Part shown: positions 1-28,445 of the stretch, one piece after another | How positions within the stretch are numbered: the stretch's first letter is position 1 | Layout of the letters: the number at the start of each line of letters is the position of its first letter | NCBI GenBank assembly: GCA_039028435.1 | Contig: JBCCIC010000001.1 | Coordinates: forward strand, 396,240-460,239 | Direction of reading: 5' to 3' | DNA length: 64,000 nucleotides | Source: Actinomycetota bacterium | GTDB lineage: Bacteria > Actinomycetota > Acidimicrobiia > Acidimicrobiales > UBA10347 | Made by a program: the position numbers and the translations under genes | The notes under the pieces: generated by a model | What the model saw: only the letters and a program-made list of their open reading frames with translations | What the model was told of the DNA's origin: nothing | Database searches by the model: none

Positions 1-1723
1 CCTGATCACCGAGCTGCTCAAACTCGCCATGCGATACCGCGGTCGCCTGCTGGCAACCTTCCTGTTCGGCGTGCTGCGGGTCGTGGCCTTCATCGGCGTC
101 GGCGTGTTCAGTGCGTTGATCGTGCAGGCGCTCCGCAACGGGGACCCGTATGGCACCTGGCTCGTCGCGCTGTTCATCGTCGCGCCGCTGAGCGGACTCC
201 TGCACTGGATGGAGTCCTGGATCGCGCACGACATGGCCTTCCGCCTGCTCGCCGAAATGCGCATCGCCACCTTCCGCAAACTCGACGCCCTGTCGCCGGC
301 CTACCTGGTGCGACGTCGCACGGGAGACCTGATGGCGCTCGCCACCAATGACATTGAGCTCGTCGAGTACTTCTTCGCCCACACGATCGCGCCGGCCTTC
401 GTCGCGGTCCTCGTGCCGACCATCGTGATGATCGTTCTCGGCGTGCAGAGCGCCTGGGTTTCACTGGCACTCCTGCCGTTCCTACTCGCGGCTGCGCTGA
501 GTCCCGTCTTCCTGCGGGGTCGCGTTGACCGCTTGGGATCTCGGGCTCGCGAAGCGGCGGGGGAGCTCGGCGCGTACGCCGTCGACTCGGTGCAGGGGCT
601 TGGTGAGGTCGTCGCATTTCAACACGAAGCGCGACGCGGCGACGGCCTCGACGATTTGTCACAGCGCCACATCTCGCTGCGGCTGCCCTTCTTCGGTCAG
701 CTCACCTTCCAACAAGCGCTCCTCGAGGTGTTCACCGGCTTGGGCGGCCTAGCGGTCGTCGTGACCGGTGGCCTGATCGTCCAGCGGGGCTCGATCGACG
801 ACGGCGTTGTACCCCTCCTCACGCTCCTCGCGATGGCGGCATTTCTCCCCGTCTCCGAGATCGCACAGGTCGGCAGACAACTCGCCGACACCCTGGGCGC
901 GACGCGGCGGATCTACGCCCTCGACAACGAGCCGGTCGTCATTGCAGACGGCAACGGTGTCGACACTCCGCACGACGACGAGGCACCACCGGTGTCCGTC
1001 GAAGCGGTCGACTTCGCCTATCCCGGTCATCGTCGTCGGGCCCTCGACGATGTCACGATCGACATCCCCGCCGGCAAGGTCGTGGCCCTCGTAGGCACCA
1101 GCGGCGCCGGCAAGACCACCGCAGCGCTGCTCGCCATGCGGTTCTGGGACCCCGACGACGGCGCGGTGACGATGGACACCGCCGACCTCCGCGACCATCG
1201 ACTCGACGATTTGCGCGAGCGGATTGCGCTCGTGGCTCAGGACACCTACCTGTTCAACGACACGCTTCGAGCGAACATCTTGATCGGCCGTCCCGACGCC
1301 GGTGAGGACGAACTGCTCGCCGCCGTCGAACTCGCGGCGCTCGGAGATCTGATCGCCACCCTCCCCGACGGCATCGACACGCCGGTCGGTGAGCGCGGCA
1401 CGAGCCTGTCCGGAGGTCAGCGCCAGCGGGTGGCCATCGCTCGGGCGTTCCTGAAGGACGCTCCGGTGCTGATTCTCGACGAGGCGACCTCGCACCTCGA
1501 CGCCGTCAACGAGAATTTGCTGCGGCGCTCACTCGCCGAGCTGCAAACCGACCGTACGACGATCGTCATCGCGCACCGCCTGTCGACGATCCGTGATGCC
1601 GATCTCATCGTGGTGCTCGATGACGGACGCGTGGTTGAGCAAGGGACGCACGACGACCTCGTCGACGCCGATGGGCTCTATGCAAATCTGGTGAGCCGAC
1701 AGTTGGCGAGCGCCGCCGGCTGA
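1..1723 (+). CDS. ABC transporter, fused permease/ATPase subunit (exporter fold, CydC/CydD-like); probably 5'-truncated by the window edge
   Basis: ORF 29..1723 stays open in frame back to nt 2. The N-terminal ~300 aa is hydrophobic. The NBD has Walker A GTSGAGKTT, signature LSGGQRQR, Walker B LILDEATSHLD and H-loop IAHRLST. Confidence 0.85.
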   Translation, partial: LITELLKLAMRYRGRLLATFLFGVLRVVAFIGVGVFSALIVQALRNGDPYGTWLVALFIVAPLSGLLHWMESWIAHDMAFRLLAEMRIATFRKLDALSPAYLVRRRTGDLMALATNDIELVEYFFAHTIAPAFVAVLVPTIVMIVLGVQSAWVSLALLPFLLAAALSPVFLRGRVDRLGSRAREAAGELGAYAVDSVQGLGEVVAFQHEARRGDGLDDLSQRHISLRLPFFGQLTFQQALLEVFTGLGGLAVVVTGGLIVQRGSIDDGVVPLLTLLAMAAFLPVSEIAQVGRQLADTLGATRRIYALDNEPVVIADGNGVDTPHDDEAPPVSVEAVDFAYPGHRRRALDDVTIDIPAGKVVALVGTSGAGKTTAALLAMRFWDPDDGAVTMDTADLRDHRLDDLRERIALVAQDTYLFNDTLRANILIGRPDAGEDELLAAVELAALGDLIATLPDGIDTPVGERGTSLSGGQRQRVAIARAFLKDAPVLILDEATSHLDAVNENLLRRSLAELQTDRTTIVIAHRLSTIRDADLIVVLDDGRVVEQGTHDDLVDADGLYANLVSRQLASAAG

Positions 1724-2414: not shown

Positions 2415-3851
2415 CTATGCCGTGGCCGCCCCCAGAATCGCCTTGGTCTCGAGGAACTCTTCCAGACCATGTGCGCCCCACTCGCGCCCGTTACCCGACT
2501 GCTTGTAGCCGCCGAACGGCGCGTTGAAGTCGGGCCCAGCGCCGTTGACGTGCACGTTGCCCGTGCGGATGCGCCGGGCAACACCGAGCGCACGCTCCTG
2601 GCTACCCGACACGTAGCCGGCGAGTCCGTAGACGGTCTCGTTGGCGATGCGCACGGCATCGTCGTCGTCTTCGTAGCCGATCAGGACGAGGACCGGCCCG
2701 AAGATCTCCTCTTGGGCGATCCGCATGTCGTTGGTGACGTTGGCAAAGAGGGTGGGCCGCACGAAGTAGCCCGACTCGAGTCCCTCGGGTCGGCCGACAC
2801 CACCGGTGACCAGCTCGGCGCCTTCGTCGATGCCCGCCTGGATCAGGTCCTGGATCTTGTTCCATTGCACCTCGGAAACGACCGGACCCATCACGACGCC
2901 ATCGCTGGTGGGATCACCGACCGCGACGGCATCCATGGCCGATTTGGCCACCGTCTTGGCCTCTTCCATCGCGGAATTGGGGATCAACATTCGCGTGCCG
3001 GCGTTGCAAGACTGGCCCGAGTTGGTGCACATGCCGAACGCATCCCGGCGGACAGCCTCGGCGACATCGGCGTCGTCGAGAATGATGTTGGCCGACTTGC
3101 CGCCAAGCTCCTGCGCGACACGCTTGACCGTCGGGGCGGCGTTGCGAGCGACCTCGACGCCGGCACGGGTCGAACCGGTGAAGGACATCATGTCCACGCC
3201 CGGATGTGCCGAGAGGTGTGCTCCGACGGTCGGACCGTCGCCGTTGACGAGGTTGAAGACCCCGGCCGGGACACCCGCTTCGTCGAGGATCTCGGCGAAG
3301 AGCAGTGCGTTGAGTGGCGCGACCTCCGACGGTTTGAGGACCATCGTGCAGCCGGCAGCGAGCGCAGGCGCGACCTTGCAGGCGATCTGGTTGAGCGGCC
3401 AGTTCCAGGGCGTGATCATGCCGACGACACCCACAGGCTCGCGGACCAGCAGGGTCTTGCCCTGGGCGGTTTCGAACTCGAAGTTGGGCAGGATCGCCGC
3501 CATCGTGCCGAAGTGCGCCATCCCTGTCGGGGCTTGTGCCGCCTTGGCAAGGCCGCCCGGAGCCCCCATTTCGGCACTGATGATCTCGGCGAGGTCATTG
3601 CTACGAGCGCCGAGCAGCTCGGTGATCTTGCCGAGGAGGGCAGTGCGTTCGTCGACGGATGACCTGGACCAACTCTCGAACGCCGACTGGGCGGCGGCAA
3701 CGGCGTCATCGACGTCGGCGGTCCCGCCCATGGCGATCGAGGCGATCGGTTGTTCGGTGGCCGGATTGATGACGGCGAGTGTCTCGTCGGTTGACGGATC
3801 GACCCATTGTCCGTTGATGTAGAAGCGTCTGGTGTTCGCGGAAATCTCCAC
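2415..3851 (-). CDS. NAD(P)-dependent aldehyde dehydrogenase
   Basis: ALDH hallmarks are present: ELGGKSANIILDDAD, FTGSTRAG, SGQSCNAGTRMLI (catalytic Cys) and EEIFGPV. The track ORF runs to 3944; I prefer GTG 3851 (VEISANTRRFYINGQWV), which gives about 478 aa. Confidence 0.9.
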   Translation of the reverse strand: MEISANTRRFYINGQWVDPSTDETLAVINPATEQPIASIAMGGTADVDDAVAAAQSAFESWSRSSVDERTALLGKITELLGARSNDLAEIISAEMGAPGGLAKAAQAPTGMAHFGTMAAILPNFEFETAQGKTLLVREPVGVVGMITPWNWPLNQIACKVAPALAAGCTMVLKPSEVAPLNALLFAEILDEAGVPAGVFNLVNGDGPTVGAHLSAHPGVDMMSFTGSTRAGVEVARNAAPTVKRVAQELGGKSANIILDDADVAEAVRRDAFGMCTNSGQSCNAGTRMLIPNSAMEEAKTVAKSAMDAVAVGDPTSDGVVMGPVVSEVQWNKIQDLIQAGIDEGAELVTGGVGRPEGLESGYFVRPTLFANVTNDMRIAQEEIFGPVLVLIGYEDDDDAVRIANETVYGLAGYVSGSQERALGVARRIRTGNVHVNGAGPDFNAPFGGYKQSGNGREWGAHGLEEFLETKAILGAATA

Positions 3852-3872
3852 GGTTGCCCCTCTCGGTCGGGT

Positions 3873-3905
3873 TGGTAGGCACTTGATGTAAGGCATACCA
3901 TACAA
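3873..3905 (+). promoter_or_regulatory. Two overlapping TAGG/TAAGG-type boxes (weak DtxR/IdeR-like) upstream of the binding-protein operon
   Basis: TGGTAGGCACTTGATGTAA (3873-3891) and TGTAAGGCATACCATACAA (3887-3905). The second is a 14/18 self-complementary palindrome. They lie in the divergent ALDH/PBP intergenic region. Confidence 0.35.
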
Positions 3906-3966
3906 ACTGACTCGCGACTTCCTAACAAGCGCGACACACAGCAACTCGCGGGAGAAGATTCACGAA

Positions 3967-5196
3967 ATGCCTCGTCGTCGTTTTCGTACGCTGATGACAC
4001 TCATCGGTGCCCTGGCACTGCTGGCTGCGGCTTGCAGTAGCGAACGGCCTGGCGGCGAAGCGGCCGCGGAATCGGCAAGCGAAGCCTCGGCGAGCGAGCC
4101 GTCCGAGAGCGCCAGCGCCGACGAAGCCAGCGGCGGCGAGGACAGCGCCGATGACGCTGACGACGCGGCATCCGAGCCCGAGCCCGACGTTGATCAGGAA
4201 GAGGACGGCGCTGACGAGGCAGCAGCCGACGAGGACGCCGCGGCAGAGCCGGAACCGACCGAGGAGCCAACACCGGAACCTGCACCCACCGAAGAGCCCT
4301 CGATCTACCCGATCACAATCAGTGATTCGTACGGCAACGAGTTCACCTTCGACGAGCGGCCCCGCATCGGGTGTGCGTGGTACGGCTGCATCGAAGCCGG
4401 CGCCGAGCTCGGTGTCACCTTTGAGGCGGCCATCATCACCGAGGAGGAAGCCGACTCGACGTTCTTCGGTGCGCTGCAGCCCGATGTCCTGATCGTCGAC
4501 TTCCTCAACCCCGAGGAGTGGGCCGCTGCCGACGTCGACCTCGTCGTCCTGAGTCCGGCGAGCAACACGCCCGAGCTGGATCCGATTCGCCAGGTGAACC
4601 CGCTCTTCTACCTCCACTACGACAACTTCCTCGCGCCGCAGTGGGAGGGCGTGATCGGTGGCTACGAGGGCTACCTCGAGAACCTGCGTCTCCTCGGCCA
4701 GCTGATGGATCGCACCGCCGAGGCCGAGGAAGCGATCGCCCGATTCGACCGGCTCGTCGAGAGCCTTGCCACCTACGCCACCCCGGAGATGGCCGACCAG
4801 ACGATCGCCATCATCGGTCTGCTCGGCTACGCCGCCCTCGGCCCCGGCAACGCCTTCTGCCAAATCCTCAACGAAGCCGGACACGGCACCTGCATCGGCG
4901 AGGGCGTCGCCCAGATTCTCAATGCCGAGGCCTTTCTGGCCCTCGATCCCGACGTGATCCTCGACCAGGATCCGGCGGCGCGAGACGGCGATCCGATCTG
5001 GCCGAACCTGTCGGCGGTCCAGGACGGCACCGTCTACGACATCGTGAGCAACCGGCACTACTGCTGCTCGACCAGCGGGCTGGTCCACGTGACCCAGGAG
5101 TACTTGAGCCTGCGCTTCCCGGACGCCGGCGTCGAGGATCCCGGTCCGGTCGAGGACTTCGACAGCCGACTTAGCCCTCTCGTCACCGAGGGGTGA
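3967..5196 (+). CDS. Lipoprotein, iron-siderophore (class III, FhuD/FepB-like) ABC substrate-binding protein
   Basis: Signal peptide plus lipobox (LLAAAC), then a ~90-aa Asp/Glu/Ala/Pro-rich linker, then a PBP-like body. It is the first gene of a FecCD/ATPase operon. Confidence 0.85.
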   Translation: MPRRRFRTLMTLIGALALLAAACSSERPGGEAAAESASEASASEPSESASADEASGGEDSADDADDAASEPEPDVDQEEDGADEAAADEDAAAEPEPTEEPTPEPAPTEEPSIYPITISDSYGNEFTFDERPRIGCAWYGCIEAGAELGVTFEAAIITEEEADSTFFGALQPDVLIVDFLNPEEWAAADVDLVVLSPASNTPELDPIRQVNPLFYLHYDNFLAPQWEGVIGGYEGYLENLRLLGQLMDRTAEAEEAIARFDRLVESLATYATPEMADQTIAIIGLLGYAALGPGNAFCQILNEAGHGTCIGEGVAQILNAEAFLALDPDVILDQDPAARDGDPIWPNLSAVQDGTVYDIVSNRHYCCSTSGLVHVTQEYLSLRFPDAGVEDPGPVEDFDSRLSPLVTEG

Positions 5197-6281
5197 CCGC
5201 GGTCGACGAGGCGGCGACCATCGGACCCGCCGACGGCAAGCCGTCGGTCGACGGGTCGACGGTTGCCGCTGGCCGCGCAACCCGACTCCTGGCCGCTGTC
5301 GGGCTCCTCACGATCGCCGTCGCCGCGCTCGTCCTCTACAACCTCACCCAGGGCGAGCCCGATCACTCGTTGTCGACCGCGCTCGACAATCTCCTTCGGA
5401 CGGGCCCGATCGCCGGCGACATCGACAGCATCCTGATCCGCGAGGTTCGCCTACCGCGCGTGCTGATGGCCCTCCTCGCCGGAAGCGCTCTGGGCCTGGC
5501 CGGGGTGTTGTTGCAGGACGCGCTCCGCAACCCGCTCGCCGATCCGACGCTGCTCGGCGTCGCCCAGGGTGCCGGTTTCGTGATCGCCCTCGCCTCGATC
5601 TACCCGGAACTGGTTCCGCCGCTGCCGACCTCGGTGCTGTGCTTCATCGGCGGAACCCTGGCCGGATCCGTGGTGCTCGTCTTGAGCCGTCGCTCGCGCA
5701 ACCCGGTGCGTGTGGTGCTGGCGGGCGCCATGGTGTCGATCCTCTTCGCAACCTTGTCGAGTGTGGTCATCCTCATCACGCCTCGAACACGGGGTCTCGG
5801 CATCATCGAGTACTTCCGGTTCGTGATCGGGTCGTTCATCGATGTCACCTGGGACAGCATCGGTGCTGTCCTGCCGTGGTTCCTCCTTGCCGTTCCGCTG
5901 GGGCTCGCCAGCGCCCGGATCGTGAACCTGCTCTCGCTGGGCGACGAAGCTGCGTCGTCGCTCGGACTCAACCCCGGCCGGGCCCGCATCGGTCTGATGA
6001 TCCTGTCGATGGCATTGGTGACCCCATACGTTGCCCAGATCGGCCCGATCGGTTTCGTGGCCCTGTTCGCACCACACGTCTCCCGAAGCCTCATCGCCAG
6101 CTCCGATGCGCTCCGAGTGATGATCACCTCGGCCTTCGCCGGCGCGCTCATGTTGCTGACCGCCGACACCGCGGCGCGGCTGCTGTTCTTCCCCTTCGAG
6201 GTCCCAGCGGGCGTGTTCACCTTCCTGATCGTCGGACCACTCGCGCTGGTCATCGTCGGTCGCCTCGGACGTAGTCGATGA
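5193..6281 (+). CDS. FecCD-family iron-siderophore ABC permease
   Basis: The GTG start overlaps the upstream stop (GTGA). Polytopic membrane protein with typical FecCD motifs (REVRLPRVLMALLAGSALGLAGVLLQ..RNPLADP). Confidence 0.9.
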   Translation: MTAVDEAATIGPADGKPSVDGSTVAAGRATRLLAAVGLLTIAVAALVLYNLTQGEPDHSLSTALDNLLRTGPIAGDIDSILIREVRLPRVLMALLAGSALGLAGVLLQDALRNPLADPTLLGVAQGAGFVIALASIYPELVPPLPTSVLCFIGGTLAGSVVLVLSRRSRNPVRVVLAGAMVSILFATLSSVVILITPRTRGLGIIEYFRFVIGSFIDVTWDSIGAVLPWFLLAVPLGLASARIVNLLSLGDEAASSLGLNPGRARIGLMILSMALVTPYVAQIGPIGFVALFAPHVSRSLIASSDALRVMITSAFAGALMLLTADTAARLLFFPFEVPAGVFTFLIVGPLALVIVGRLGRSR

Positions 6282-7360
6282 GTCTCACGGCCGACCGCGC
6301 GCCACGCGAGGCTGCGGCGGATCCACGCTGGAAGACGTCGCGTCTGATGACCGCATCCCTGGCGATCGCCATTCTCACGACCGGTCTCATCTCGCTGTGG
6401 TGGGGCACCGGCAGCGTGCGTATGTCACCGACGCGTGTGTGGACCGCTCTGACCGACGAAGACGCGGTCTTCCGCATTGAGGCCGTCGCCGCGGAGGCCC
6501 GCCTCGTGCGCGTGGTCATGGGCATTCTCGTCGGTGCATCGCTGGCGTCCGCCGGGGCCATGCTGCAGTCGCTCTATCGAAACCCGTTGGCCAGCCCCCA
6601 GATCACCGGCGTCACCCAAGGCTCCGTCGTGGCCGTCGTGATGTGGCTGCTCTACGGGCCGAACTCGGAATCGACGTGGGTGCTGCCGCTGGTCGGCGCC
6701 CTCGGCGGCGTGGGCACCGGGCTCCTGACCTATGGGATCTCCAAACTCGGCGGACGAGTCGATCCGCTGCGACTGATCTTGGTGGGCGTGTTGCTCGGCG
6801 GCTTGCTGTCGTCCATGACCGCGTTGGTACTGATCAGTGCTGATGGGGCGGGTTTGGACCTCATCTCGTGGACCGTGGGTTCGCTCCAGTCGGCGTCATG
6901 GTCACGCATCCGCTTGCTGGCGATCGCACTCCTGCTATGCATTCCGCTCATCCTGCTCGCCATCCCCTACGGCAATGCGCTCAACCTGGGTGAGGAGATC
7001 GCCCACGGTGCAGGGGTCTCGGTCAACCGAGGACGTGGCATCGTGCTGCTCGCTGCCGCCTCGATCACCGCGGCATCGGTCTCGCTCGTCGGCGGCATCG
7101 GGTTCATCGGCCTGGTCGCGCCCCACATCGTCCGGCGGTGGACCGGGGCAGATCTGCGTCGCCTCGTTCCCAACTCGGCCTTGTCCGGTGCCCTCCTCGT
7201 GCTCCTCGCCGACTTCGCTTCGCGGAACCTGCGACCGCGGGACGTTGCGTCGGCGCTCGGGGTCGCCGAGGAGGTTGCGCCGACCGCCCTTCCGACCGGA
7301 ATCTTCCTTGCGCTGATCGGCGCACCCTTCTTCATCCACTTGCTCAGGAGGACCCCGTGA
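6278..7360 (+). CDS. FecCD-family iron-siderophore ABC permease (second subunit)
   Basis: ATGA overlap with the upstream gene. FecCD motifs present (RLVRVVMGILVGASLASAGAMLQS..RNPLASP). Confidence 0.9.
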   Translation: MSLTADRAPREAAADPRWKTSRLMTASLAIAILTTGLISLWWGTGSVRMSPTRVWTALTDEDAVFRIEAVAAEARLVRVVMGILVGASLASAGAMLQSLYRNPLASPQITGVTQGSVVAVVMWLLYGPNSESTWVLPLVGALGGVGTGLLTYGISKLGGRVDPLRLILVGVLLGGLLSSMTALVLISADGAGLDLISWTVGSLQSASWSRIRLLAIALLLCIPLILLAIPYGNALNLGEEIAHGAGVSVNRGRGIVLLAAASITAASVSLVGGIGFIGLVAPHIVRRWTGADLRRLVPNSALSGALLVLLADFASRNLRPRDVASALGVAEEVAPTALPTGIFLALIGAPFFIHLLRRTP

Positions 7361-8175
7361 GCGCCGACGCACCTCCGTTGCTGAATGGTCTTGAGGCATC
7401 GGGCATCGCCGCCGGATACACGACCGACGTGCTGCACGACGTCGACCTTGCCGCGACCGAGGGCAGGGTCACCGCCCTCGTGGGCCCCAACGGTTCCGGC
7501 AAGTCGACCCTGCTCAAGGCCTGCGCCAATCTCCTCGAACGATCGACCGGAAGCGTGACGATCCAAGGCCAGGACATCGCCGAGCTGTCGACGCGGCAAG
7601 TGGCGACCAAGCTTGCACTGCTCCCCCAGGGTCCGAGCACGCCCCCGTACCTGACGGTTCGCGACCTGGTCGAACAGGGGCGGTTCGCACATGTCGGACC
7701 CCTCGGCATGCTGCGACGCCAGGACCATGCGGCCGTCACCGAAGCGATCTCGCTCGTCGGGCTCGAGAGCTTCGCCAATCGCGACGTCGATGCCCTCTCC
7801 GGCGGTGAGCGCCAGCGAGCGTGGCTCGCACTCGCCCTGGCTCAGGAAACGCCCGTTCTGGCCCTCGACGAGCCGACTACGTTTCTCGACATCGGTCACC
7901 AGTGGGAAGTCCTCGAACTGGTCAGGTCGCTCAACGAGGAACGCAACCTCACCGTGCTCATGGTGCTCCACGACCTCAACCACGCCGCATCCTTCTCGGA
8001 CCAATTGGTCGTGCTCGAACAGGGTCGGGTCGTCGCCGCCGGCGATCCGTGGGACACGCTCACCACCGAACTTCTCCGCGAAGTGTTCGGCGTCGAGGCC
8101 TCGATCATCGCCGACCCCAAGACCGATCGCCCACTGATCGTGCCCCACGCCGCCGCACCCCGCGGGACCAGATGA
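7357..8175 (+). CDS. Iron-siderophore ABC importer ATPase (FepC/FhuC-like)
   Basis: GTG 7357 overlaps the upstream TGA (GTGA). Walker A GPNGSGKST, signature LSGGERQR, Walker B LALDEPTTFLD. The track ORF start at 7138 lies inside the permease gene and was rejected. Confidence 0.9.
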   Translation: MSADAPPLLNGLEASGIAAGYTTDVLHDVDLAATEGRVTALVGPNGSGKSTLLKACANLLERSTGSVTIQGQDIAELSTRQVATKLALLPQGPSTPPYLTVRDLVEQGRFAHVGPLGMLRRQDHAAVTEAISLVGLESFANRDVDALSGGERQRAWLALALAQETPVLALDEPTTFLDIGHQWEVLELVRSLNEERNLTVLMVLHDLNHAASFSDQLVVLEQGRVVAAGDPWDTLTTELLREVFGVEASIIADPKTDRPLIVPHAAAPRGTR

Positions 8176-9935
8176 CCGCCATGATGGGTGGCGCAAGTGC
8201 GCCTCCCAGTCCCGGCTACGAGGCGACCGGTGGGGCCATCATCCGTTGGGCCCTCAAACGACAGTGGCGCTGGATCGCGCTCGGCGCGACCACCGGAATG
8301 ATCTGGATGGCCGGCTTCGCCGCTGCGCCGGTGCTGGTCGGCTACGCCATCGACGACGCGATCGATGGGCGCAGCGGCGCGAGGATGGCGATGTGGGCGG
8401 TCGCCTTCCTGGGCGTCGTGACCGCCAGCGCAATCGCGGGGGCGGTCCGACACCGCTGCGCCATCACACTGTGGGCCACCATCGGTCTTCTCGCCGAGGG
8501 CCACCTGACGCGACGAGTGCTGGACCGGCGAGGTGGCATCGATCGTCCGCCGGCCGAACTCGTCTCACTGGGCGTCGGCGACGCCAACAAGATCGGCAGA
8601 ATCGGTGATCTGACCAATCGTGGCGGTGGTGCGGTCGTGATGTTGGTGGTCGTCGCCGTGTGGCTGCTGGCGACCTCGGTTTCGCTCGGCCTCCTGGTTC
8701 TGATCGCGGTACCGATGTCGGCCGCCGCCATCCTCCCGTTCCTGTCTCGCTACGACGAACGCTCAACGGTGGAGCGGCGCGAGCTGGCATCTGCATCGGC
8801 GGCCGCGGCGGACGGCATCCAAGGCCTCCGAACCGCACACGGACTCGGAGGTGGTCGCCAGATACGGAGCTGGTTCCGCGAGCGCTCCGGGCTCATGCAC
8901 CGTTCGGCCCTGTCGCTCGTGCGAATCGAAGCCACACTCTTCGCCACCGTTGGCGCCATCCCGCTGCTGACCCTCGTGCCGGTCCTGTGGTACGGCGGCG
9001 TGCAAGTCCTTGATGGCACGATCTCCCCTGGAACCTTTGTCACCGTCGTCGGTCTCGCCCAGTTCTTGGCGATGCCCCTCCAGACCCTTGGCGAGGCGGC
9101 CGGAGTCGTCACAGCAGGACGTGCGTCAGCGCGCCGGATCGAGCAGATCGTGACGACCTCCGCATCGATCGACGCCGAAGCGGCGACCTCGACCGGGTCA
9201 GCGAGCGACAGCACCCTCCGAGGCGATCGATCGAACGCGTTCGCACTGCGCCTCGAAGCTGTGACGGTTGGGGAGCTCGGCCCAGTCGATCTCCAGGTGG
9301 CACGCGATGCGACGGTCGGGGTGGCCGCAGATCACCAGGCGATCGCCGCGCTGGCAGGGATCCTTGCGCGTCATCGGCCCAGTGGCGGTGGCACGATCCG
9401 CGTCGGCGCCGAGCGCCTCGACGAGATTCCGCTCGACGACGTGCACCACCGCCTCGTCGTCATCGACAGCGAACGCCCTTGGTTGCTCTCGGCCAGCCTG
9501 CTCGACAACCTGCGACTGGCCCGTTCCAGCGCAACGCGCGCCGATGCCGAAGCGGCGCTGCGCAACGCAGCATGCGACGAGATCCTCGCCCGAAGTGACG
9601 CGCTCGATCGGCTCATCGGCGAGCGAGGCTTGCAGCTGAGCGGTGGACAGCGCCAGCGGATCGCAACCGCACAGGCCTTGCTTGCGCCCGCCCAGATCGT
9701 CGCGTTGATCGAGCCGACCAGTGCGCTCGATGCTGCGACCGAATCGCTCTACGTCGAGCGGTTCATGGCCTCCGCCCGTCCGACCACCCTGCTACTCACC
9801 ACATCGCCTCGACTGCTCTCCGCCTGTGACGAGGTTGCGTTCATCCACAACGGCGTGGTCGCCAGGACGGCCAGCCATCACGAGCTCCTCGAGACCGAAC
9901 CGGCATACGGCCGTCTCGTACTGGGTGTCGAATGA
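8172..9935 (+). CDS. Exporter-fold ABC half-transporter with a fully degenerate nucleotide-binding site (IrtA/YbtP-like partner)
   Basis: ATG 8172 overlaps the upstream stop (ATGA). N-terminal TMD plus NBD. Walker A is absent (TVGVAADHQAIAAL), the Walker B Asp is lost (VALIEPTSALD) and the H-loop His is lost (LLLTTSPRL). The signature LSGGQRQR is intact. Confidence 0.85.
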   Translation: MTAMMGGASAPPSPGYEATGGAIIRWALKRQWRWIALGATTGMIWMAGFAAAPVLVGYAIDDAIDGRSGARMAMWAVAFLGVVTASAIAGAVRHRCAITLWATIGLLAEGHLTRRVLDRRGGIDRPPAELVSLGVGDANKIGRIGDLTNRGGGAVVMLVVVAVWLLATSVSLGLLVLIAVPMSAAAILPFLSRYDERSTVERRELASASAAAADGIQGLRTAHGLGGGRQIRSWFRERSGLMHRSALSLVRIEATLFATVGAIPLLTLVPVLWYGGVQVLDGTISPGTFVTVVGLAQFLAMPLQTLGEAAGVVTAGRASARRIEQIVTTSASIDAEAATSTGSASDSTLRGDRSNAFALRLEAVTVGELGPVDLQVARDATVGVAADHQAIAALAGILARHRPSGGGTIRVGAERLDEIPLDDVHHRLVVIDSERPWLLSASLLDNLRLARSSATRADAEAALRNAACDEILARSDALDRLIGERGLQLSGGQRQRIATAQALLAPAQIVALIEPTSALDAATESLYVERFMASARPTTLLLTTSPRLLSACDEVAFIHNGVVARTASHHELLETEPAYGRLVLGVE

Positions 9936-11821
9936 GCGGGGCCCCGGGCGAGTCGCGAGCGTCGGAGGAGTCGGAACGTCGCGTGAGCGCCGCCGACGAG
10001 CTTCCCTTGGCATCGCCGTCGGTCGTCCGCGGCTGGGTACGCGACTTCGTCGGGCGGCGACGGCGCAAAGCCGTCGGTGTGCTCGTCCTGCTGGTGATCA
10101 CCACGGCGGCCTTCGCCTCGATTCCCGGCATCATCGGCGTGGCCGTCTCCACCGTCACCGACGGAGGCGACCGCGGTGACCTCGCACTGCTCGCCGCGGT
10201 CATGGTTGCGGTGACCGTCGTGATGATGATCGGCACCTACTTCGGACGCAACGCCGCGGCCGAGTTCGGCGAGTCGATCCTGGACGAGCTGCGGTTGCGG
10301 GTCTACGACGCCACGGTTGCGCTCCCCGGATCGGTCGTCGAGTCCGTCGGCACCGGCGAGCTCGTCGCACGCACGACCGGCGATGTCGAAACGCTCGCTG
10401 GCGCGACACGGAACGCGATCCCGGTGGTCTTGTTCACGACACTCGGTGCCGCCGGGAACGTCATCGCCATGGCCATCGTCGACGTGCGTCTGGCTGCGGT
10501 GGCGGTCATCACCGGAACGGCGGTATCTGCGCTTGGTGTCCGCTGGTACCTGCGCACTGCGGCGGCTCGCTACGAGCGCGAGCGCCAAACGGAATCGAGC
10601 CGCTCGGGTGCATTGCTCGAGCGCTACTCGGGCCGCGCGACGCTCTGGGCGTTCGGGGCCACCGGCACGAGCTATCAGGCGCTCGCCGCCTGCGGCGACG
10701 AACGAGTCGCCTCACAGCTCGCGACCGCACACGCCCGCAACCGGCTTCGGGTCTCACTGCGCGTCGGCCAGGGCGTAGCACTCGGTGTCGTCGTGATGCT
10801 CGGCGCGTACTTCCTGCGCACCGGTTCACTCTCGGCCGGTGCCATGACCGCTGCGACGCTCTACACGCTGCGGCTGATGGACCCGGTCACCGCACTGCTC
10901 GAGCAACTCGACTCGCTCCAACAGGCGCAGGCATCGCTCCGACGGATCGCCGGCGTGGTCGAGCTGAGCGAGGCCAACGACCGCATCGCGCCCTGGCCCG
11001 AGATCGATGCGCCGGCCCGCCGCGGCGGGCTCGAGGTACGCGTGGAGAACGTGACATTCGGCTACGAGGCGAACCTGCCGGCACTCGAGCAGATCGACCT
11101 CACCATTCCTGCCGGCCAGCGCGTGATGGTCGTCGGACCGAGCGGCGCGGGCAAGAGCACGCTCGCCGGCCTGATCTGCGGAACTCAGCTCCCGTGGACC
11201 GGCTCGGTCTGTGTCGACGACGTTGACGTGGGACCAATTCGTCGGGATGAACTCCGGGCGCGAGTGGCTCTGGTCGCCCAGGAGACCCACACCTTCGAAC
11301 GTTCGATTCGAGACAACGTGTCGATCGGTCGGCCGGCCGCCGACGATGACGAGATCACCGAGTGCCTCCAGAAGACCGGAGCGTGGTCCTGGATCGCCGA
11401 CCTGCCCGACGGCCTGGACACCATCGTTTCGAACACCCATCCGGCGATGACCGCGGCGCGAGCCCAGCAGCTCAACCTCGCACGGGTCATCTGTCTCGAC
11501 CCCCAAGTGGTCGTCCTCGACGAAGCCACCGCCGACCTCGACTTGCTGAGTGCCGGCCAGGCAGAACGACAACTCGGCGCGATCCTCCACGACCGCACCG
11601 TCGTGTGGATCGCGCACCGCCTGGACAACGCACCGCGACTCGACCGCGTGATCATGATCGCGGACGGGAGGATCGTCGACGACGGCCCCCACGATCAGCT
11701 GATCGCGCGAGACGGCCCCTATGGCCGGCTGTGGGACGCATGGCGCGCCGCCCATGGCGGGACCTCATCCCGTGCCTCCGACCGCACCCCCACGCACTCC
11801 CCCGACGACCAACCCGCTTGA
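9932..11821 (+). CDS. Exporter-fold ABC half-transporter with a canonical ATPase site but a degenerate signature motif (IrtB/YbtQ-like partner)
   Basis: ATGA overlap with the upstream gene. Walker A GPSGAGKST, Q-loop VAQETHTF, Walker B VVLDEATADLD and H-loop IAHRL are canonical. The LSGGQ position reads MTAARAQQ. Confidence 0.85.
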   Translation: MSGAPGESRASEESERRVSAADELPLASPSVVRGWVRDFVGRRRRKAVGVLVLLVITTAAFASIPGIIGVAVSTVTDGGDRGDLALLAAVMVAVTVVMMIGTYFGRNAAAEFGESILDELRLRVYDATVALPGSVVESVGTGELVARTTGDVETLAGATRNAIPVVLFTTLGAAGNVIAMAIVDVRLAAVAVITGTAVSALGVRWYLRTAAARYERERQTESSRSGALLERYSGRATLWAFGATGTSYQALAACGDERVASQLATAHARNRLRVSLRVGQGVALGVVVMLGAYFLRTGSLSAGAMTAATLYTLRLMDPVTALLEQLDSLQQAQASLRRIAGVVELSEANDRIAPWPEIDAPARRGGLEVRVENVTFGYEANLPALEQIDLTIPAGQRVMVVGPSGAGKSTLAGLICGTQLPWTGSVCVDDVDVGPIRRDELRARVALVAQETHTFERSIRDNVSIGRPAADDDEITECLQKTGAWSWIADLPDGLDTIVSNTHPAMTAARAQQLNLARVICLDPQVVVLDEATADLDLLSAGQAERQLGAILHDRTVVWIAHRLDNAPRLDRVIMIADGRIVDDGPHDQLIARDGPYGRLWDAWRAAHGGTSSRASDRTPTHSPDDQPA

Positions 11822-11831
11822 GGAGCAATCC

Positions 11832-12914
11832 ATGACCGACACCTTCGATGCGGAGACGATCGATCAGATCGAGCTCATCCTCGACGTGATCAACAGCCAA
11901 TACGCCGACACCTTCGCCTTCGTGAGTCGGTGGGCCGAGGCCGACGACGCCATCACTTCGGCGAACCTGCTGACCATCGACCCACGCGGCGCGGATGCCG
12001 AGGTCACGACCGAGGCTGGAACGCGTGCGGTGCGACTCGACTTCGGTGAGACCATCCTCGGCCTCGAACAACTCGAGCACGCCATGTTCGGATTGCTGGA
12101 GCAGGCACGAGCAGCCCGGCCGACCGATCCCTTGACATCGATCGAGCTCCAGTTCGAACGCACGGAGCACCAGCCGACCCATCGCTGCACGATCCTCGCC
12201 GTCGAAGAGCTGAACGAGCGGCTGCGGGCCTTCACGGTCGGTCCGGTTCCTGGTTGGGTGGACCTCGGTGGCGATCAGTCCATGACCCTATTTCTCGACC
12301 TGCCCGGTCGGCCGATCCCCGACGACATCCGGCTCTCGACATTCCGGGAGATGCACGACGATGTTCGACCCAAAGGTGCGACCTATTCGATCCGACGCCA
12401 CGATCCCGATCGGTCGACGGTCGAGGTCTGGGTCGTTCTGCATGGCGACGATCCCCACACCATCGGTGGGTGGGCGGCCGACGCAACGGTCGGCGATGCC
12501 ATCACCCTGTGGGGTCCGAGGCGAGCCGGTTCGACAAGCGATCGCGCCCAGCGATTCCTCGGCGTCTGCGACGAGACCGGGTTGGCCGCGACGCTGGCGA
12601 TCGTCGACGAATTGGACCCGGGGGTGCCCGTCGACCTGGTCGTCGAGGTCACCGACGCGGAGGCCGAGTTCCAGCTGACGCAACGAGATGGTGTGACGGT
12701 CCACTGGTGTCACCGCGGCACTGACGAGCCCGGCACCGGGACGCGGCTCCTCGACCGCGTACGTGAACTCGTGACCGAGCGGGACGACGCGATGGCCGCG
12801 TTCGGCGCATCCGAGTCTCGAGCCATCACGGCCGTTCGCAAGTACCTCCGGCGCGAGCTGGACATGCCGGCGTCGGCCGTGTCGCTCACCGGGTACTGGC
12901 GTCGAGCGAAGTGA
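11832..12914 (+). CDS. Siderophore-interacting protein (SIP/ViuB-type ferric-siderophore flavoreductase) with an N-terminal extension
   Basis: ATG 11832 is preceded by GAGGAG. The C-terminus ends in the SIP-typical ..AVRKYLRRELDMPASAVSLTGYWRR. The FNR-like FAD/NAD halves follow a ~110-aa N-terminal domain. Confidence 0.8.
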   Translation: MTDTFDAETIDQIELILDVINSQYADTFAFVSRWAEADDAITSANLLTIDPRGADAEVTTEAGTRAVRLDFGETILGLEQLEHAMFGLLEQARAARPTDPLTSIELQFERTEHQPTHRCTILAVEELNERLRAFTVGPVPGWVDLGGDQSMTLFLDLPGRPIPDDIRLSTFREMHDDVRPKGATYSIRRHDPDRSTVEVWVVLHGDDPHTIGGWAADATVGDAITLWGPRRAGSTSDRAQRFLGVCDETGLAATLAIVDELDPGVPVDLVVEVTDAEAEFQLTQRDGVTVHWCHRGTDEPGTGTRLLDRVRELVTERDDAMAAFGASESRAITAVRKYLRRELDMPASAVSLTGYWRRAK

Positions 12915-12932
12915 CGCTCGACGGCGAGCGTC
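12913..12932. terminator. Bidirectional terminator-like hairpin between convergent genes
   Basis: GACGCTCG-acgg-CGAGCGTC is a perfect 8-bp GC-rich stem with a 4-nt loop. It sits exactly between the SIP stop (12914) and the methyltransferase stop (12935). Confidence 0.5.
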
Positions 12933-12934
12933 GG

Positions 12935-13699
12935 TCAGCCGGCAGCGCGCCGTCCGACGGCCGCGACGTAGCCGTCGTCGAGCACCAGTGTGTCGCCGCG
13001 GGCTTCGCAGCGCTCCGCCAGCTCGCCGCGAAGACGCGACCGAGCCACCTCCCAGACACCGCGCGCCTCGGCCTCGTCGCGGAGTAGTCGTAGACCGCCC
13101 GCAGCCGTGGTCAGCGTCTGGACGGCGTCGTCGAGATCCGTGAAGTTCCAGGTGAGCGTGGATCGGACAGCGTCGGTGTCGACGAAGCCTGCGTTGGCCA
13201 GAAGGCCGACCGCACGGTCGCCCTCCCCCAGCGTCGTAGCGAAGGGTTTGGCGGGATTGTCGAGCGCCTCGGCCAGAATTGCGCGACATGCGCCAGGCCA
13301 CCCACCGGGTAGCCACGTGGTGAAGGCGAACCGGCCGTCGTCAAGCAACACCCGATAGGCCTCCCGCGCGGTCGCTGCCGGATCGGGAGCGAAGATCACG
13401 CCGAAGTTGGAGATCGCCGCACCGAAAGTCTGCGCAGCGAACGGCAGCTCCTGAGCGTCGCCGATCGCTGAGCGATGCCCGGCGCGACACGCGGCGGCGA
13501 CCTGAGAGGCAGCCAGGTCCACCCCGACTGCGCTCCAGCCACGATCACGTGCCGCATCGAGACCGGTGCCGATACCGGCACCGACGTCGAGAACCCGGTC
13601 CGCGGTCGGTCCGACGAGATCCAGGAGCACCTCGTTGGCCGGCGCAACGTGGCGCGCCATGACCCCGTAGCGCGACCATCTCGCTTCGTCGACCGTCAT
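12935..13699 (-). CDS. Class I SAM-dependent methyltransferase
   Basis: Motif I VLDVGAGIGTG. ATG 13699 overlaps the stop of the upstream flavoprotein (ATGA). The upstream part of the 507-aa track ORF is Arg/Pro-rich shadow sequence. Confidence 0.8.
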   Translation of the reverse strand: MTVDEARWSRYGVMARHVAPANEVLLDLVGPTADRVLDVGAGIGTGLDAARDRGWSAVGVDLAASQVAAACRAGHRSAIGDAQELPFAAQTFGAAISNFGVIFAPDPAATAREAYRVLLDDGRFAFTTWLPGGWPGACRAILAEALDNPAKPFATTLGEGDRAVGLLANAGFVDTDAVRSTLTWNFTDLDDAVQTLTTAAGGLRLLRDEAEARGVWEVARSRLRGELAERCEARGDTLVLDDGYVAAVGRRAAG

Positions 13700-15096
13700 G
13701 TCCAACCCGCCTCGGCAAGGGCGCTCAGGTTGGCGACCGCAGGCTCGACGCTCTCGAGCATCAGCGTCAGCGATTCCATCACCGCGGGGTCGTCGAAGTG
13801 TTCGGCCATCGACCGGGTGGGGTTGAGTCGAGCCTGCTGTGACCAGGCCGCGATGTCCGGATGGTCGCGCCGAGCACCCTCGGCTTCGAGGCCGGCGGCG
13901 AGGATACGCAGCTGGTCGGCGATCAAACCCGTGCGGGGCACCGGAGGACAGAGCCGGTTGCGCTCGTCGTCGTCGATGTCCAGGGTCTCGACGAAGCCGA
14001 GAATCGCCGCGCTCCAGGGAGCGACGCCCAGGGTCGTGAACTGCACATCGATCCGACCCTCGGCGTAGATCGGTGACGTTGGTGCCGTCGCCAGGCCTTG
14101 CGCCGTGCAGTTGACATGCACCGTCCTGGCCGAGGTCGGGACGTCGGCTTCGTCGAGCTGGATCGAGTGCGGCCCAATGCTGCGAACGCGACCATGCCGC
14201 ACCACCTGCTCCACCATGCGCAGGATGGCGAGTTCTTCCCGGGCGATGACCGCGCCGCGGTACGTCAGCGCCTCGAACGCCGGGTCCACGCGGCACATCA
14301 TGCCGTGGTCTTCGAGCTGGCGGGCGAACGACTGACCCGACTGCGCGGTGCCACAGGCCTCGATCGTCCGCGCCTGATACGCAACCATCGACCCGACGAG
14401 GTCGAACGGCTGGGTGTGGGCCCGATCGACGAGCCAGGCGTCCCGCGGACGCACCCAACGGATCCGATCGGGTTCGACGCCCTGGCCGATCAACCAGACG
14501 ACGGTGTCCATCGCCGTCTTGCCGGCACCGATGATCACGAAGCCGTCGGCCGGCTCATCGAGATGAGTCAACTCGTTCGGTGCGACGACACACATGTCGT
14601 CGTCGTACGCGAACGGCGGCGCATGGCGCGAGGGCACCTCGCTGGCGACGATCGTGGCGTTGACGACACGCCGAGCGACCGCGACTTCGGTCGTGGTTCC
14701 ATCGAGTCGCGACACCAGCTGATGGCGCCCGGATGACTCGCCTCGGTAGTCGACCATCGGCATCCAACGAACTCGGCCCGATGCCATCAAGTCGTCGAGC
14801 ACTGAGCGGTAATACGAGGCGACCTCGTGTCCCGTAGCCCGCTCGTAGAAACCGTCGTTGATCCCACCGACATCGATGCGGTCGTTGCCGAGTGGGCGAG
14901 AGTTCACGCCGTAGTAGGCGCTCGGTTGATGCAGGCGCACGAATGGGTACGCGTCGACCCAGTGGCCACCCGGCTCGTGACGCCGATCGGCCAGCGTGAC
15001 GGTGGCGTCGCTGTGGCGAACGATCTCGTCGGCGACGGCAAGCCCGGACGCTCCGGCCCCGACGATCAGGTAGTCCGTGGTTTCAACTTTTGTCAT
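13696..15096 (-). CDS. FAD/NAD(P)-binding oxidoreductase (flavin monooxygenase-like, two dinucleotide-binding folds)
   Basis: N-terminal DYLIVGAGASGLA...GGHW and a second GxGxxA motif (VIIGAGKTAMD). No finer family assignment is possible by eye. Confidence 0.75.
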   Translation of the reverse strand: MTKVETTDYLIVGAGASGLAVADEIVRHSDATVTLADRRHEPGGHWVDAYPFVRLHQPSAYYGVNSRPLGNDRIDVGGINDGFYERATGHEVASYYRSVLDDLMASGRVRWMPMVDYRGESSGRHQLVSRLDGTTTEVAVARRVVNATIVASEVPSRHAPPFAYDDDMCVVAPNELTHLDEPADGFVIIGAGKTAMDTVVWLIGQGVEPDRIRWVRPRDAWLVDRAHTQPFDLVGSMVAYQARTIEACGTAQSGQSFARQLEDHGMMCRVDPAFEALTYRGAVIAREELAILRMVEQVVRHGRVRSIGPHSIQLDEADVPTSARTVHVNCTAQGLATAPTSPIYAEGRIDVQFTTLGVAPWSAAILGFVETLDIDDDERNRLCPPVPRTGLIADQLRILAAGLEAEGARRDHPDIAAWSQQARLNPTRSMAEHFDDPAVMESLTLMLESVEPAVANLSALAEAGWT

Positions 15097-15107: not shown

Positions 15108-16277
15108 CTACTCGGTCGGTTCCAGGTCGAAAATCGCGCCCAGATCATCGAGGATGGCGTGGGCCCCGAAGAAGCCGACCCCCGACATCCAGCGATCGTC
15201 GGACACCGCGTACACGTTGCCGGAGCTCACGGCGCCAAGGGTGTCCCAGAGCGGGCTGCCCAGCAGTTGTTCGACCCCGGCCTCGACGTCTTCATTGGGG
15301 AAGGTCGCATAGACGAGCACGTCGCCATCGGCGAGGTCCAGTTCCTCTTCACTGATGACCCGGATGAACTCGTCGGGGTCCTGTTGACTCGGCGGACGAG
15401 CGAGACCTGCGTCGCCGAGTACCACACCACTGAAGCTGTTCGGTTGGTAGAGCCGAATCACGTCGACGAACCGCACCACCGAGATCGTCGGCGAGTCGTA
15501 CTGCTCGTTGATCGCTGCGCCGACTGCGGCGGCGCGAGCCTCGTAGGCGACCAGGACCTCCTCTGCCAAGTCTTCTCGTCCGCTTGCGGCCGCGCCAAGA
15601 CGGATCGAGTCCTTCCAGCCGGCGCCCGCCGACTCGCTCATCACCGTGGGTGCGATCTGCGCGAGCTCGCCGGCGATGTTCTCGTGGCGGACCACGCTGG
15701 TCAAGATGAGATCCGGCTGTGCCGCGGCGATGAGCTCGAGATTCGGTGCGAACAGGTCGCCCATCCAGACGGCATCAGCCCCGAAGGTTTCCGCGGCCTC
15801 GCCGTAGAGCTCAGGCAGCGGCCCGTTCGGGTCCGAGAAGGTCGTGTACCCGACGACCTGGAGTTCGAGGGTAAAGGCGACGTCGAGCATGGACTGGTCG
15901 AGCACCACGACCCGCTGCGGCGCCACTGGGATCTCGACCGGTCCGAGCGCGGTTTCGACGGTTCGAGGAAAGACCGGCGGAACGGTTGGTTCCGGCGATG
16001 GCTCCGCGGTCGGCTCGGGGGCAGCGTCGATGTCGGGATCGGTGTCGGCTGCGGGATCGGTGTCGGCTGCGGGATCGGCGTCGCTAGCAGCCTCAGGTGC
16101 CGACGTCGGTGCCGGTGTCTCCGTCGGCGCCGGTTGCGAGTCACTGGCCGCTGAGGCCGTTTCGGCGCCGTCACCGGCATTGGCATCGGACCCGGCACAA
16201 CCGGTGGCGAACAGGAGCAGGAGCGAGAGCACCACTGCCCGGAATGCCCGGAATGCCGCGATGCGAGAGGAGGCCAT
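15108..16277 (-). CDS. Lipoprotein, iron-siderophore class III ABC substrate-binding protein
   Basis: Signal peptide plus lipobox (LFATGC), an acidic Pro/Ala/Asp linker containing a tandem repeat, and a PBP body (..GPVEIPVAPQRVVVLD..). Confidence 0.85.
   Translation of the reverse strand: MASSRIAAFRAFRAVVLSLLLLFATGCAGSDANAGDGAETASAASDSQPAPTETPAPTSAPEAASDADPAADTDPAADTDPDIDAAPEPTAEPSPEPTVPPVFPRTVETALGPVEIPVAPQRVVVLDQSMLDVAFTLELQVVGYTTFSDPNGPLPELYGEAAETFGADAVWMGDLFAPNLELIAAAQPDLILTSVVRHENIAGELAQIAPTVMSESAGAGWKDSIRLGAAASGREDLAEEVLVAYEARAAAVGAAINEQYDSPTISVVRFVDVIRLYQPNSFSGVVLGDAGLARPPSQQDPDEFIRVISEEELDLADGDVLVYATFPNEDVEAGVEQLLGSPLWDTLGAVSSGNVYAVSDDRWMSGVGFFGAHAILDDLGAIFDLEPTE
16035..16088. repeat. 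3 x 18-bp in-frame tandem repeat inside the binding-protein linker
   Basis: gggatcggtgtcggctgc occurs twice exactly, then a diverged third copy. It encodes DPAADT-DPAADT-DP on the minus strand. Confidence 0.9.
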
Positions 16278-16301
16278 CGATCGATTCTATCAACCTGATT
16301 A

Positions 16302-16320
16302 TAAGGTTTCCCTAACATAA
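16302..16320. promoter_or_regulatory. DtxR/IdeR-type iron box candidate in a divergent promoter region
   Basis: TAAGGTTTCCCTAACATAA matches TTAGGTTAGCCTAACCTAA at 15/19 positions (hand count). It is an AT-rich island between the binding-protein gene (-) and the ABC operon (+). Confidence 0.55.
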
Positions 16321-16369
16321 ATCGTTCGGACCCATTGCCCAGCGATCGGCGAGCTGGCACAATCCGAGG

Positions 16370-28406: not shown

Positions 28407-28445
28407 TAGGTATGCCACCTATCGTGCATAAGGCATGGCTATACC
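28404..28445 (+). promoter_or_regulatory. Two TAGG/TAAGG boxes directly upstream of and overlapping the binding-protein start
   Basis: TGATAGGTATGCCACCTATC contains the perfect inverted repeat GATAGG-N7-CCTATC. CATAAGGCATGGCTATACC overlaps ATG 28435. Confidence 0.4.

Follow-up and report, generated by a model that had tools for sequence, protein, structure and literature searches.

A seven-gene actinobacterial operon encoding a FecCD-type importer, an asymmetric exporter-fold ABC pair and a DRI-SIP flavoreductase

The operon, its importer and its reductase

The operon described here lies near the start of a 64-kb stretch of DNA from an Actinomycetota bacterium known from a metagenome-assembled genome (MAG; 850-kb contig JBCCIC010000001.1, positions 396,240 to 460,239), which is referred to below as the window and whose numbering is used throughout. 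It consists of seven co-directional genes on the + strand, encoding a substrate-binding lipoprotein (SBP; PBP1), two FecCD-type permeases, a FepC/FecE-like ATPase, two exporter-fold half-transporters (A1 and B1), each with a transmembrane domain (TMD) followed by a nucleotide-binding domain (NBD), and a flavoreductase, SIP1 (Table 1). The open reading frames (ORFs) and the Pfam matches agree with the gene order and coordinates of the original prediction; its count of eight genes was a miscount, since both flanking genes, an aldehyde dehydrogenase gene (real start near 3840) and a methyltransferase gene (from 12935), lie on the other strand. The tight spacing that it described can be seen directly in the sequence: five successive junctions are 4-nt GTGA or ATGA overlaps (at 5193, 6278, 7357, 8172 and 9932), and B1 and SIP1 are separated by a 10-nt gap, with a GAGGAG that overlaps the B1 stop codon and precedes the ATG at 11832. 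Pfam, sequence motifs and junctions together confirm that a complete type II importer, an exporter-fold heterodimer and a SIP protein are encoded in one tightly coupled unit. Overlaps of this kind are routine in the genome, and ATGA/GTGA overlaps also join the genes of an IrtAB-like pair and its SIP protein further along the window.

The NCBI gene calls (MEM7091720-726) are seven consecutive accessions whose starts agree with ours for six genes; the PBP1 start is placed at 3994, that is, 9 codons downstream of 3967. Longer versions of SIP1 (start 11721), the ATPase (7138) and A1 (7821) were rejected because the added stretches are Arg/Pro-rich out-of-frame read-through, and NCBI likewise uses the shorter genes. 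None of ten proteins searched against NCBIfam reached a curated cut-off; the best match of the ATPase was FecE, below the cut-off, and A1 and B1 gave only sub-threshold matches of the MsbA/CydC type.

The first four genes encode a complete type II (FecCD/BtuCD-like) importer with a class III SBP, two FecCD permeases and its own ATPase, in which Walker A (GPNGSGKS), the signature (LSGGE) and Walker B (VLALDEP) are all intact. In PBP1, a signal peptide that ends in LLAAAC is followed by an acidic, low-complexity tether of ~85 aa and then by a divergent class III SBP domain. A sequence search of the PDB gave no match to PBP1. The structures nearest to its AlphaFold model (predicted local distance difference test, pLDDT, 93) were HtsA (staphyloferrin A), Vibrio FecB (ferric citrate), FepB, PiuA, ViuP and FeuA, at a template-modelling (TM) score of ~0.7 and 14-17% identity, and all of these are binders of siderophores or ferric chelates. 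The model thus predicts a siderophore/ferric-chelate SBP fold for PBP1, and a ferric siderophore or ferric chelate would be the substrate class of the importer, with no NCBIfam equivalog cut-off reached. The PBP1 family is small: a search of 5.8 billion clusters yields 14 members at E<1e-5, every one of them from MAGs of Actinomycetota.

SIP1 is related to the SIP/ViuB-family reductases (FscN of Thermobifida fusca, ViuB, YqjH), with its C-terminal part (residues 184-359) matching FscN (4yhb, 1e-15) and ViuB in a PDB search, and differs from them in an extra N-terminal DRI/DUF2470 domain. This domain (residues 18-95) matches the DRI/DUF2470 protein Dri1 (Ssr1698) at E 3e-5, and the first two Zn/heme His of Dri1, as judged by eye, are not conserved. 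About 45 homologues with the same PF10615+PF08021+PF04954 architecture were found, in MAG Actinomycetota and Euzebya, whereas the DRI-SIP fusion has been reported only for a small subfamily of Pseudomonadota (PMC11014987).

The 126-nt gap between the operon and the divergent aldehyde dehydrogenase gene contains a putative operator, TGATGTAAGGCATACCATA, 65 nt before the first ATG. It matches 15/19 positions of TWAGGTWAGSCTWACCTWA, the consensus of the 19-bp palindromic IdeR/DtxR operator. When the whole window was scanned with this consensus, the best box (16/19, at 16302-16320) was found between the PBP2 gene and the IrtA-like gene discussed below, and the box at 3884 was the second best; shuffled sequence yielded 0.2 sites at 15/19 or better. 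As a positive control, the same scan returned boxes of 17/19 and 16/19 in a Streptomyces intergenic region between FecCD genes and an ABC pair. It detected no second IdeR-like box inside the operon and no box of at least 14/19 upstream in two related loci, L081 and L087, and a 13/19 match at 24603 was within chance expectation. Downstream, a perfect 8-bp hairpin, GACGCTCG-ACGG-CGAGCGTC, sits between the stop codons of SIP1 and its convergent neighbour. It has no T tract and is not called by a scan for T-tract-dependent terminators, and it is likely to be a bidirectional terminator. That scan, which is weak for a high-GC genome, gave a single terminator-like match on the + strand of the operon (6171) and no above-chance signal, and a sigma-70-like promoter scan, which is ill-suited to high-GC actinobacteria, found no promoter inside the operon. 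It is therefore plausible that all seven genes share one transcript, and the operon is apparently iron-repressed through the putative IdeR/DtxR-like operator, a single iron-repressed transcript being the simplest reading of the sequence.

Table 1. Features of the operon and of the surrounding part of the window
Feature	Position	Strand	Evidence or remark
PBP1, SBP lipoprotein	3967..5196	+	Pfam Peripla_BP_2 E 8.5e-9
FecCD-type permease 1	5193..6281	+	Pfam FecCD E 5.8e-69; GTGA overlap with PBP1 gene
FecCD-type permease 2	6278..7360	+	Pfam FecCD E 1.1e-76; ATGA overlap
FepC/FecE-like ATPase, type II importer	7357..8175	+	ABC_tran E 4.7e-31
Half-transporter A1 (TMD-NBD)	8172..9935	+	Pfam ABC_membrane + ABC_tran
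Half-transporter B1 (TMD-NBD)	9932..11821	+	Pfam ABC_membrane + ABC_tran
SIP1, DRI(DUF2470)-FAD_binding_9-SIP flavoreductase	11832..12914	+	Pfam SIP 9.2e-27, FAD_binding_9 1.3e-12
Putative IdeR/DtxR-like operator	3884..3902	.	15/19 match to consensus
Perfect 8-bp hairpin	12913..12932	.	sequence reading
PBP2, SBP lipoprotein	15108-16277	-	divergent from IrtA-like gene
IrtA-like half-transporter (ABC_A2)	16370-18142		HHH kept, all three His
IrtB-like half-transporter	18139-19875		overlap with IrtA-like gene
SIP2, separate 240-aa SIP	19872-20594		overlap with IrtB-like gene
Third exporter-fold half-transporter	29-1723		followed by a GDT1/UPF0016 gene (together 29-2312)
Aldehyde dehydrogenase	2415-3944	-	flanks the operon
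NAD_binding_8 flavoprotein	13696-15096		466 aa
Major facilitator superfamily (MFS) gene	20603-21985	-
ABC-2 exporter set	22019-24548	-
SBP-fasciclin lipoprotein	24654-27203		849 aa; Peripla_BP_2 region(s), C-terminal fasciclin domain
Second MFS gene	27243-28406
Fourth SBP lipoprotein	28435-29631

The exporter-fold pair and its family

Both A1 and B1 give full-length matches to solved type IV transporters, and the states of their ATP-site motifs were assigned from a motif scan together with an alignment of the NBDs. In A1, Walker A is degenerate (GVAADHQA, 9318-9341, with no Gly-Lys-Ser/Thr), the Walker B Asp is lost (VALIEP, 9699-9716) and so is the H-loop His (TTSPRL, 9798-9815); the signature LSGGQ is kept (9636-9650), and the Pfam ABC_tran match starts only at profile position 28. 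B1 keeps Walker A (11135-11158), Walker B (11507-11527) and the H-loop, and has a degenerate signature (MTAARAQ, 11447-11467). Since the motif losses in A1 complement that in B1, the heterodimer is predicted to have one composite ATP site that is consensus and another that is degenerate on both sides. A dead Walker A with an intact LSGGQ is present in nearly all of the top 70 A1 homologues, and the degenerate signature is conserved in each of the B1-type partner proteins examined (11/11). One live and one dead ATP site, as read from these motifs, is a conserved trait of the family in close and distant homologues alike.

The pair had been labelled IrtAB/YbtPQ-like. It does resemble those systems in being a TMD-NBD heterodimer of type IV in an apparently iron-regulated siderophore locus, and in its association with a SIP-type reductase, which is encoded by a separate neighbouring gene here but is a fused domain in IrtA (PMC11779899). 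The membrane domains of A1 and B1, however, are no closer to IrtAB/YbtPQ than to generic exporters. In searches of the PDB with the membrane domains alone, IrtAB was absent from the matches and YbtQ was found at E ~5e-4 only. The best match of A1 was 6raf_B/5mkk_B (5e-13), which we take to be TmrAB. That of B1 was 8wcw_B/9kwi_B (1e-7), namely MsRv1273c/72c, which has a degenerate nucleotide-binding site and pumps isoniazid out of the cell (PMC12038006). Coupled import needs a zinc motif, HHH or HHD; in IrtA it is HHH (H393/H439/H444), with H439 essential, and IrtAB has a catalytic Glu in both NBDs, as addressed by a 2xEQ mutant (PMC11779899). When aligned with MAFFT, A1 and its relatives show a gap or Ile in place of the second His and Asp, Thr or Val in place of the third; B1 has none of the three histidines, and its relatives likewise lack the second and third. 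Since the membrane-domain matches favour generic exporters, the essential His is missing and one ATP site is dead, the label fails, and the sequences place A1/B1 outside the IrtAB/YbtPQ family by descent.

A genuine member of that family lies close by. The module at 15108-20594, ~3.5 kb downstream, is by sequence a "split IrtA" plus an adjoining SBP. In a control search the membrane domains of its pair matched IrtA (9e-43), YbtP (2.5e-26), IrtB (1.7e-25) and YbtQ (3.7e-23), and both of its ATP sites are consensus. Its order of IrtA-like, IrtB-like and SIP2 genes, 4.5 kb downstream, is mirrored by that of A1, B1 and SIP1, and in the lineage of the window SBP genes adjoin both kinds of type IV pair. 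The earlier statement that exporter-fold importers need no binding protein is in any case outdated, since FecB co-immunoprecipitates IrtB and docking of FecB on IrtAB has been proposed (PMC10553834).

The complementary splitting of motifs between two subunits is shared with TM287/288, TmrAB, BmrCD and MsRv1273c/72c. Similarity to these degenerate-site exporters is low (membrane-domain E 1e-13 to 1e-7), and the genomic context of A1/B1 is iron uptake, in contrast to drug resistance for the exporters. The degeneration is also extreme by comparison, with the Walker A Lys, the Walker B Asp, the H-loop His and the signature of the partner all lost. In exporters of the TM287/288 type the degenerate site still binds ATP and retains the Walker A Lys, unlike A1 with its GVAADHQA.

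The close A1/B1 family is rare. About 15 close relatives of A1 (48-61% identity) were found, all in MAG Actinomycetota; the next homologues, at no more than 35% identity, belong to Streptomyces, Rhodococcus, Saccharothrix, Frankia and others. Gene contexts were compared in ten close loci (the window and nine others, given L numbers) from poorly classified MAGs, several of them on short contigs. Scanning genome contigs with a full-length family alignment was dominated by the generic LSGGQRQR and returned mostly unrelated ABC transporters, of which only L001, L002 and L026 served as distant contexts, and scanning metagenome contigs with membrane-domain patterns returned two weak loci only.

The full order SBP-FecCD-FecCD-ATPase-A-B-SIP, part of the original prediction, was found in the window; in one other genome, L081, six of these genes are similarly fused without the SIP gene, behind a second SBP gene of another clade. 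In L087, A-B is convergent with ATPase-FecCD-FecCD-SBP. L085 has TetR-A-B and a convergent SBP gene, with a FecCD operon 3.5 kb further on and MFS and ferritin genes between. L086 has A-B with an SBP gene two genes away and no FecCD gene on its 15.5-kb contig, and in L084 A-B lies beside TetR and MFS genes. Reductase genes precede the pair in the remaining loci: L095 reads SIP-SBP-FhuF-like-A-B, with all junctions overlapping and no FecCD gene; L088 and L094 read GDT1-SIP-FhuF-like-A-B, followed by PNPOx, a FetAB-like pair and an SBP; and L083 has FhuF-like-A-B only. A Peripla_BP_2 SBP gene is thus found within 4.5 kb of the pair in 8/10 loci, a SIP and/or FhuF-like reductase gene adjoins the pair in 5/10, FecCD genes are found within 6 kb in 4/10, and the fused order of FecCD genes and pair occurs in two (the window and L081).

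The FhuF-like genes (L083 9171-10004, L088 9157-10011, L094 1675-2517, L095 7229-8071) all overlap the A gene at its start, by 4-14 nt, and encode proteins of 277-284 aa which take the position equivalent to that of SIP1 next to the pair. Pfam gave a weak FhuF_C match or none, and all four proteins carry C-C-x10-C-x2-C (CCLAYE..HGYCASC), the 2Fe-2S motif of FhuF. Orthologous FecCD modules are shared by the window, L081 and L087, with identities of 43-69% for the SBP, 51-77% for the permeases and 66-81% for the ATPase. SBPs of the PBP1 type form a clade found only in FecCD operons, and the SBPs beside the pair in loci without FecCD genes group with PBP2, PBP4 and the SBP-fasciclin protein of the window; L081 has one SBP of each clade ahead of the FecCD genes and the pair. 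L081 is the closest relative; between it and the window the importer genes are better conserved (69-81% identical) than the exporter-fold pair (58-60%), and in L081 the ATPase and A genes are 28 nt apart instead of overlapping.

Distant homologues of the pair (31-35% identity, with the same dead site) are found beside FecCD and NRPS (nonribosomal peptide synthetase)/MbtH genes in Streptomyces and Rhodococcus. The homologue of S. flavochromogenes adjoins FecCD genes, MbtH and an NRPS of 4782 aa, and the 17/19 and 16/19 IdeR boxes of the positive control lie in its divergent promoter region. That of R. opacus adjoins a formyltransferase and an NRPS gene, that of Saccharothrix an SBP and an ornithine/lysine N-monooxygenase gene, and that of Parafrankia is in a type II polyketide synthase (PKS) context. 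In S. coelicolor (CchCDEF with CchGI) and M. smegmatis (FxuA-D with ExiT), a FecCD importer and an exporter-fold ABC transporter likewise occupy one iron-regulated locus, a likeness of locus layout. Export by CchGI is presumed, not demonstrated (PMC12161575), and ExiT has been modelled alongside FxuA-D (PMC6684656). These coelichelin and exochelin loci are biosynthetic clusters with the transporters in separate transcription units, whereas the operon of the window is translationally coupled and has no biosynthetic genes in view.

Direction of transport and relation of the two transporters

We read the operon as a fusion of two separable siderophore-utilisation modules and propose, with a probability of about 0.4, that A1/B1 is a reductase-coupled importer, IrtAB-like in operation. 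The FecCD system would import a ferric siderophore or ferric chelate. A1/B1 would hydrolyse ATP at the single site formed by Walker A/B of B1 and the LSGGQ of A1, move a ferric siderophore inwards and pass it to the reductase, a separate protein, such that two parallel import routes would be served by a common promoter and a common reductase. Import would be the likelier direction, since members of the family are accompanied by SBPs, among them those of the clade that goes with type IV pairs, and by ferric-siderophore reductases of the cytoplasm (SIP or FhuF-like). Furthermore, L095 has a fully coupled SIP-SBP-FhuF-like-A-B operon without any other permease, and the A-B-SIP order matches that of the IrtAB-like set of the same genome.

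Several points weigh against this proposal. A further importer looks superfluous beside the complete one that the operon already encodes and the true IrtAB-like one 3.5 kb away. Iron islands are rich in SBP genes, which can be orphans, the comparison of gene contexts is small in scale (ten loci, several on short contigs), and, since a reductase acts between import and export, reductase linkage alone leaves the direction unfixed. The nearest characterised relatives of A1/B1 are degenerate-site exporters (TmrAB-type, BmrCD, TM287/288 and MsRv1273c/72c), and to our knowledge all characterised degenerate-site heterodimers are exporters. The pair has a single consensus ATP site, unlike IrtAB with its catalytic Glu in both NBDs, and is without the HHH/HHD motif needed for coupled import in IrtAB (PMC11779899). 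Its distant homologues are in NRPS siderophore clusters, where such pairs are presumed to be exporters (CchGI, PMC12161575).

It is almost as probable that the operon instead serves an import-reduce-expel loop, in which the FecCD system imports, SIP1 frees the iron and A1/B1 expels the iron-free or newly made chelator. This would give the pair a role that complements a full importer, and orthologous FecCD modules do adjoin it in the window, L081 and L087. Expulsion would also fit the top sequence matches in the PDB (exporters in which one site is degenerate), the lack of IrtAB/YbtPQ hallmarks in the pair, the separate IrtAB-like importer nearby in both the window and L088, and the NRPS, MbtH and N-monooxygenase genes, FecCD importers and IdeR boxes beside distant homologues. 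Yet no FecCD gene is in view in L095, L086, L088 or L094, all of which have SBPs, and in three of these (the SIP-SBP-FhuF-like-A-B operon of L095, L088 and L094) reductases are paired with A-B where such a loop would have no FecCD importer in view. Among the scanned ORFs of the 64-kb window there are also no siderophore biosynthesis genes. Moreover, the exporter-fold pairs of siderophore loci whose direction has been tested, IrtAB and YbtPQ, are importers. Literature models of CchCDEF with CchGI (PMC12161575) and of FxuA-D with ExiT (PMC6684656) follow the logic of expulsion, with export by CchGI only presumed. The linkage to SBPs and the self-sufficient operon of the L095 type were weighed slightly higher, and import is slightly favoured over the loop for this reason.

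It is improbable that A1/B1 is an efflux pump for a compound unrelated to siderophores (for instance a drug, a peptide, a lipid or something related to heme) that was joined to the iron operon by chance rearrangement. Such a function could account for L084 (TetR, MFS) and the Parafrankia homologue (type II PKS), neither of which has iron genes nearby, for the isoniazid pump being the closest solved relative of the B1 membrane domain, and for the merely sub-threshold MsbA/CydC-type matches in NCBIfam. However, 8/10 close family members are in iron-uptake contexts, four with a FhuF-like gene overlapping the A gene; in the window the pair is bounded by the ATPase gene (4-nt overlap) and the SIP gene (10-nt gap with a ribosome-binding site), and the Streptomyces homologue has strong IdeR boxes. 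Least probable is the new composite machine of the original prediction, that is, one physical complex of the FecCD importer and A1/B1 made at fixed stoichiometry from one transcript. Five consecutive 4-nt overlaps and the six-gene order kept by L081 would suit a complex, but each module has its own ATPase domains and the overlaps are routine in the genome. In relatives the modules are convergent operons (L087), parted by MFS and ferritin genes (L085) or found without a FecCD module next to the pair (six other loci). The modules are therefore separable in evolution, which argues against an obligate composite machine.

Iron-regulated siderophore loci of actinobacteria in which a FecCD importer lies next to an exporter-fold ABC pair are already known, and the locus is, on its sequence, a plausible variant of these well-known transport loci. 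It differs in that both transporters and a reductase are encoded in one translationally coupled operon with no biosynthetic genes in view; in that A1 and B1 are members of a family other than IrtAB/YbtPQ, one whose second site is extremely degenerate; and in that this family is recurrently linked, by overlapping genes, to FhuF-like or SIP reductases and SBPs, with a DRI domain on the SIP. Few exporter-fold ABC transporters are known to import, examples being IrtAB and YbtPQ, and how the fold reverses is still debated (PMC11779899, PMC10967856). If A1/B1 imports, reversal would have arisen more than once and the IrtAB solution would not be required. A bolder possibility, which we regard as rather unlikely, is that Actinomycetota have, in A1/B1, a second lineage of siderophore importers with the exporter fold that arose independently, fed by its own clade of surface SBPs, driven by one live ATP site and coupled to soluble SIP/FhuF-like reductases; import through the type IV fold with the help of an SBP would in that case be a recurring theme, common to the IrtAB-like pair next door. 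If A1/B1 instead exports the used chelator, the operon would combine uptake and reduction with recycling of the siderophore in one compact cassette; for most bacteria the recycling step is poorly assigned. The value of the locus is that it offers a defined candidate, whether for a second lineage of importers with the exporter fold or for a pump dedicated to recycling the chelator.

The surrounding iron island

The first 30 kb of the window resembles an iron-uptake island, as judged from its gene content, with four SBPs compared with one FecCD system and about three type IV pairs. No genes for NRPS, NRPS-independent siderophore (NIS) synthetases or N-monooxygenases were found among the scanned ORFs of the window. 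Besides the operon and the IrtAB-like module, the island includes two MFS genes, an ABC-2 exporter set and a fourth SBP lipoprotein (Table 1).

An aldehyde dehydrogenase gene and a NAD_binding_8 flavoprotein gene flank the pair in the window, as they do in L086 (1769-5322). These common flanks suggest an older shared neighbourhood into which the FecCD module would have been inserted.

The third exporter-fold half-transporter, at the very start of the window, shows 42% identity to the IrtB-like protein across its C-terminal half, and its partner would lie beyond the window start. The GDT1/UPF0016 gene that follows it has counterparts in three relatives, where a GDT1/UPF0016 cation-transporter gene lies immediately 5' of the SIP gene (L088 7701-8276, L094 231-803, L095 4798-5370). 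Directly 3' of the pair, L088 (14264-16414) and L094 (6047-8197) have a PNPOx-like gene followed by ABC_tran and UPF0014 genes (FetAB/YbbLM-like). The window also encodes a lipoprotein in which the Peripla_BP_2 part is fused to a fasciclin domain (Table 1), and a similar SBP-fasciclin gene is present at the end of L085.

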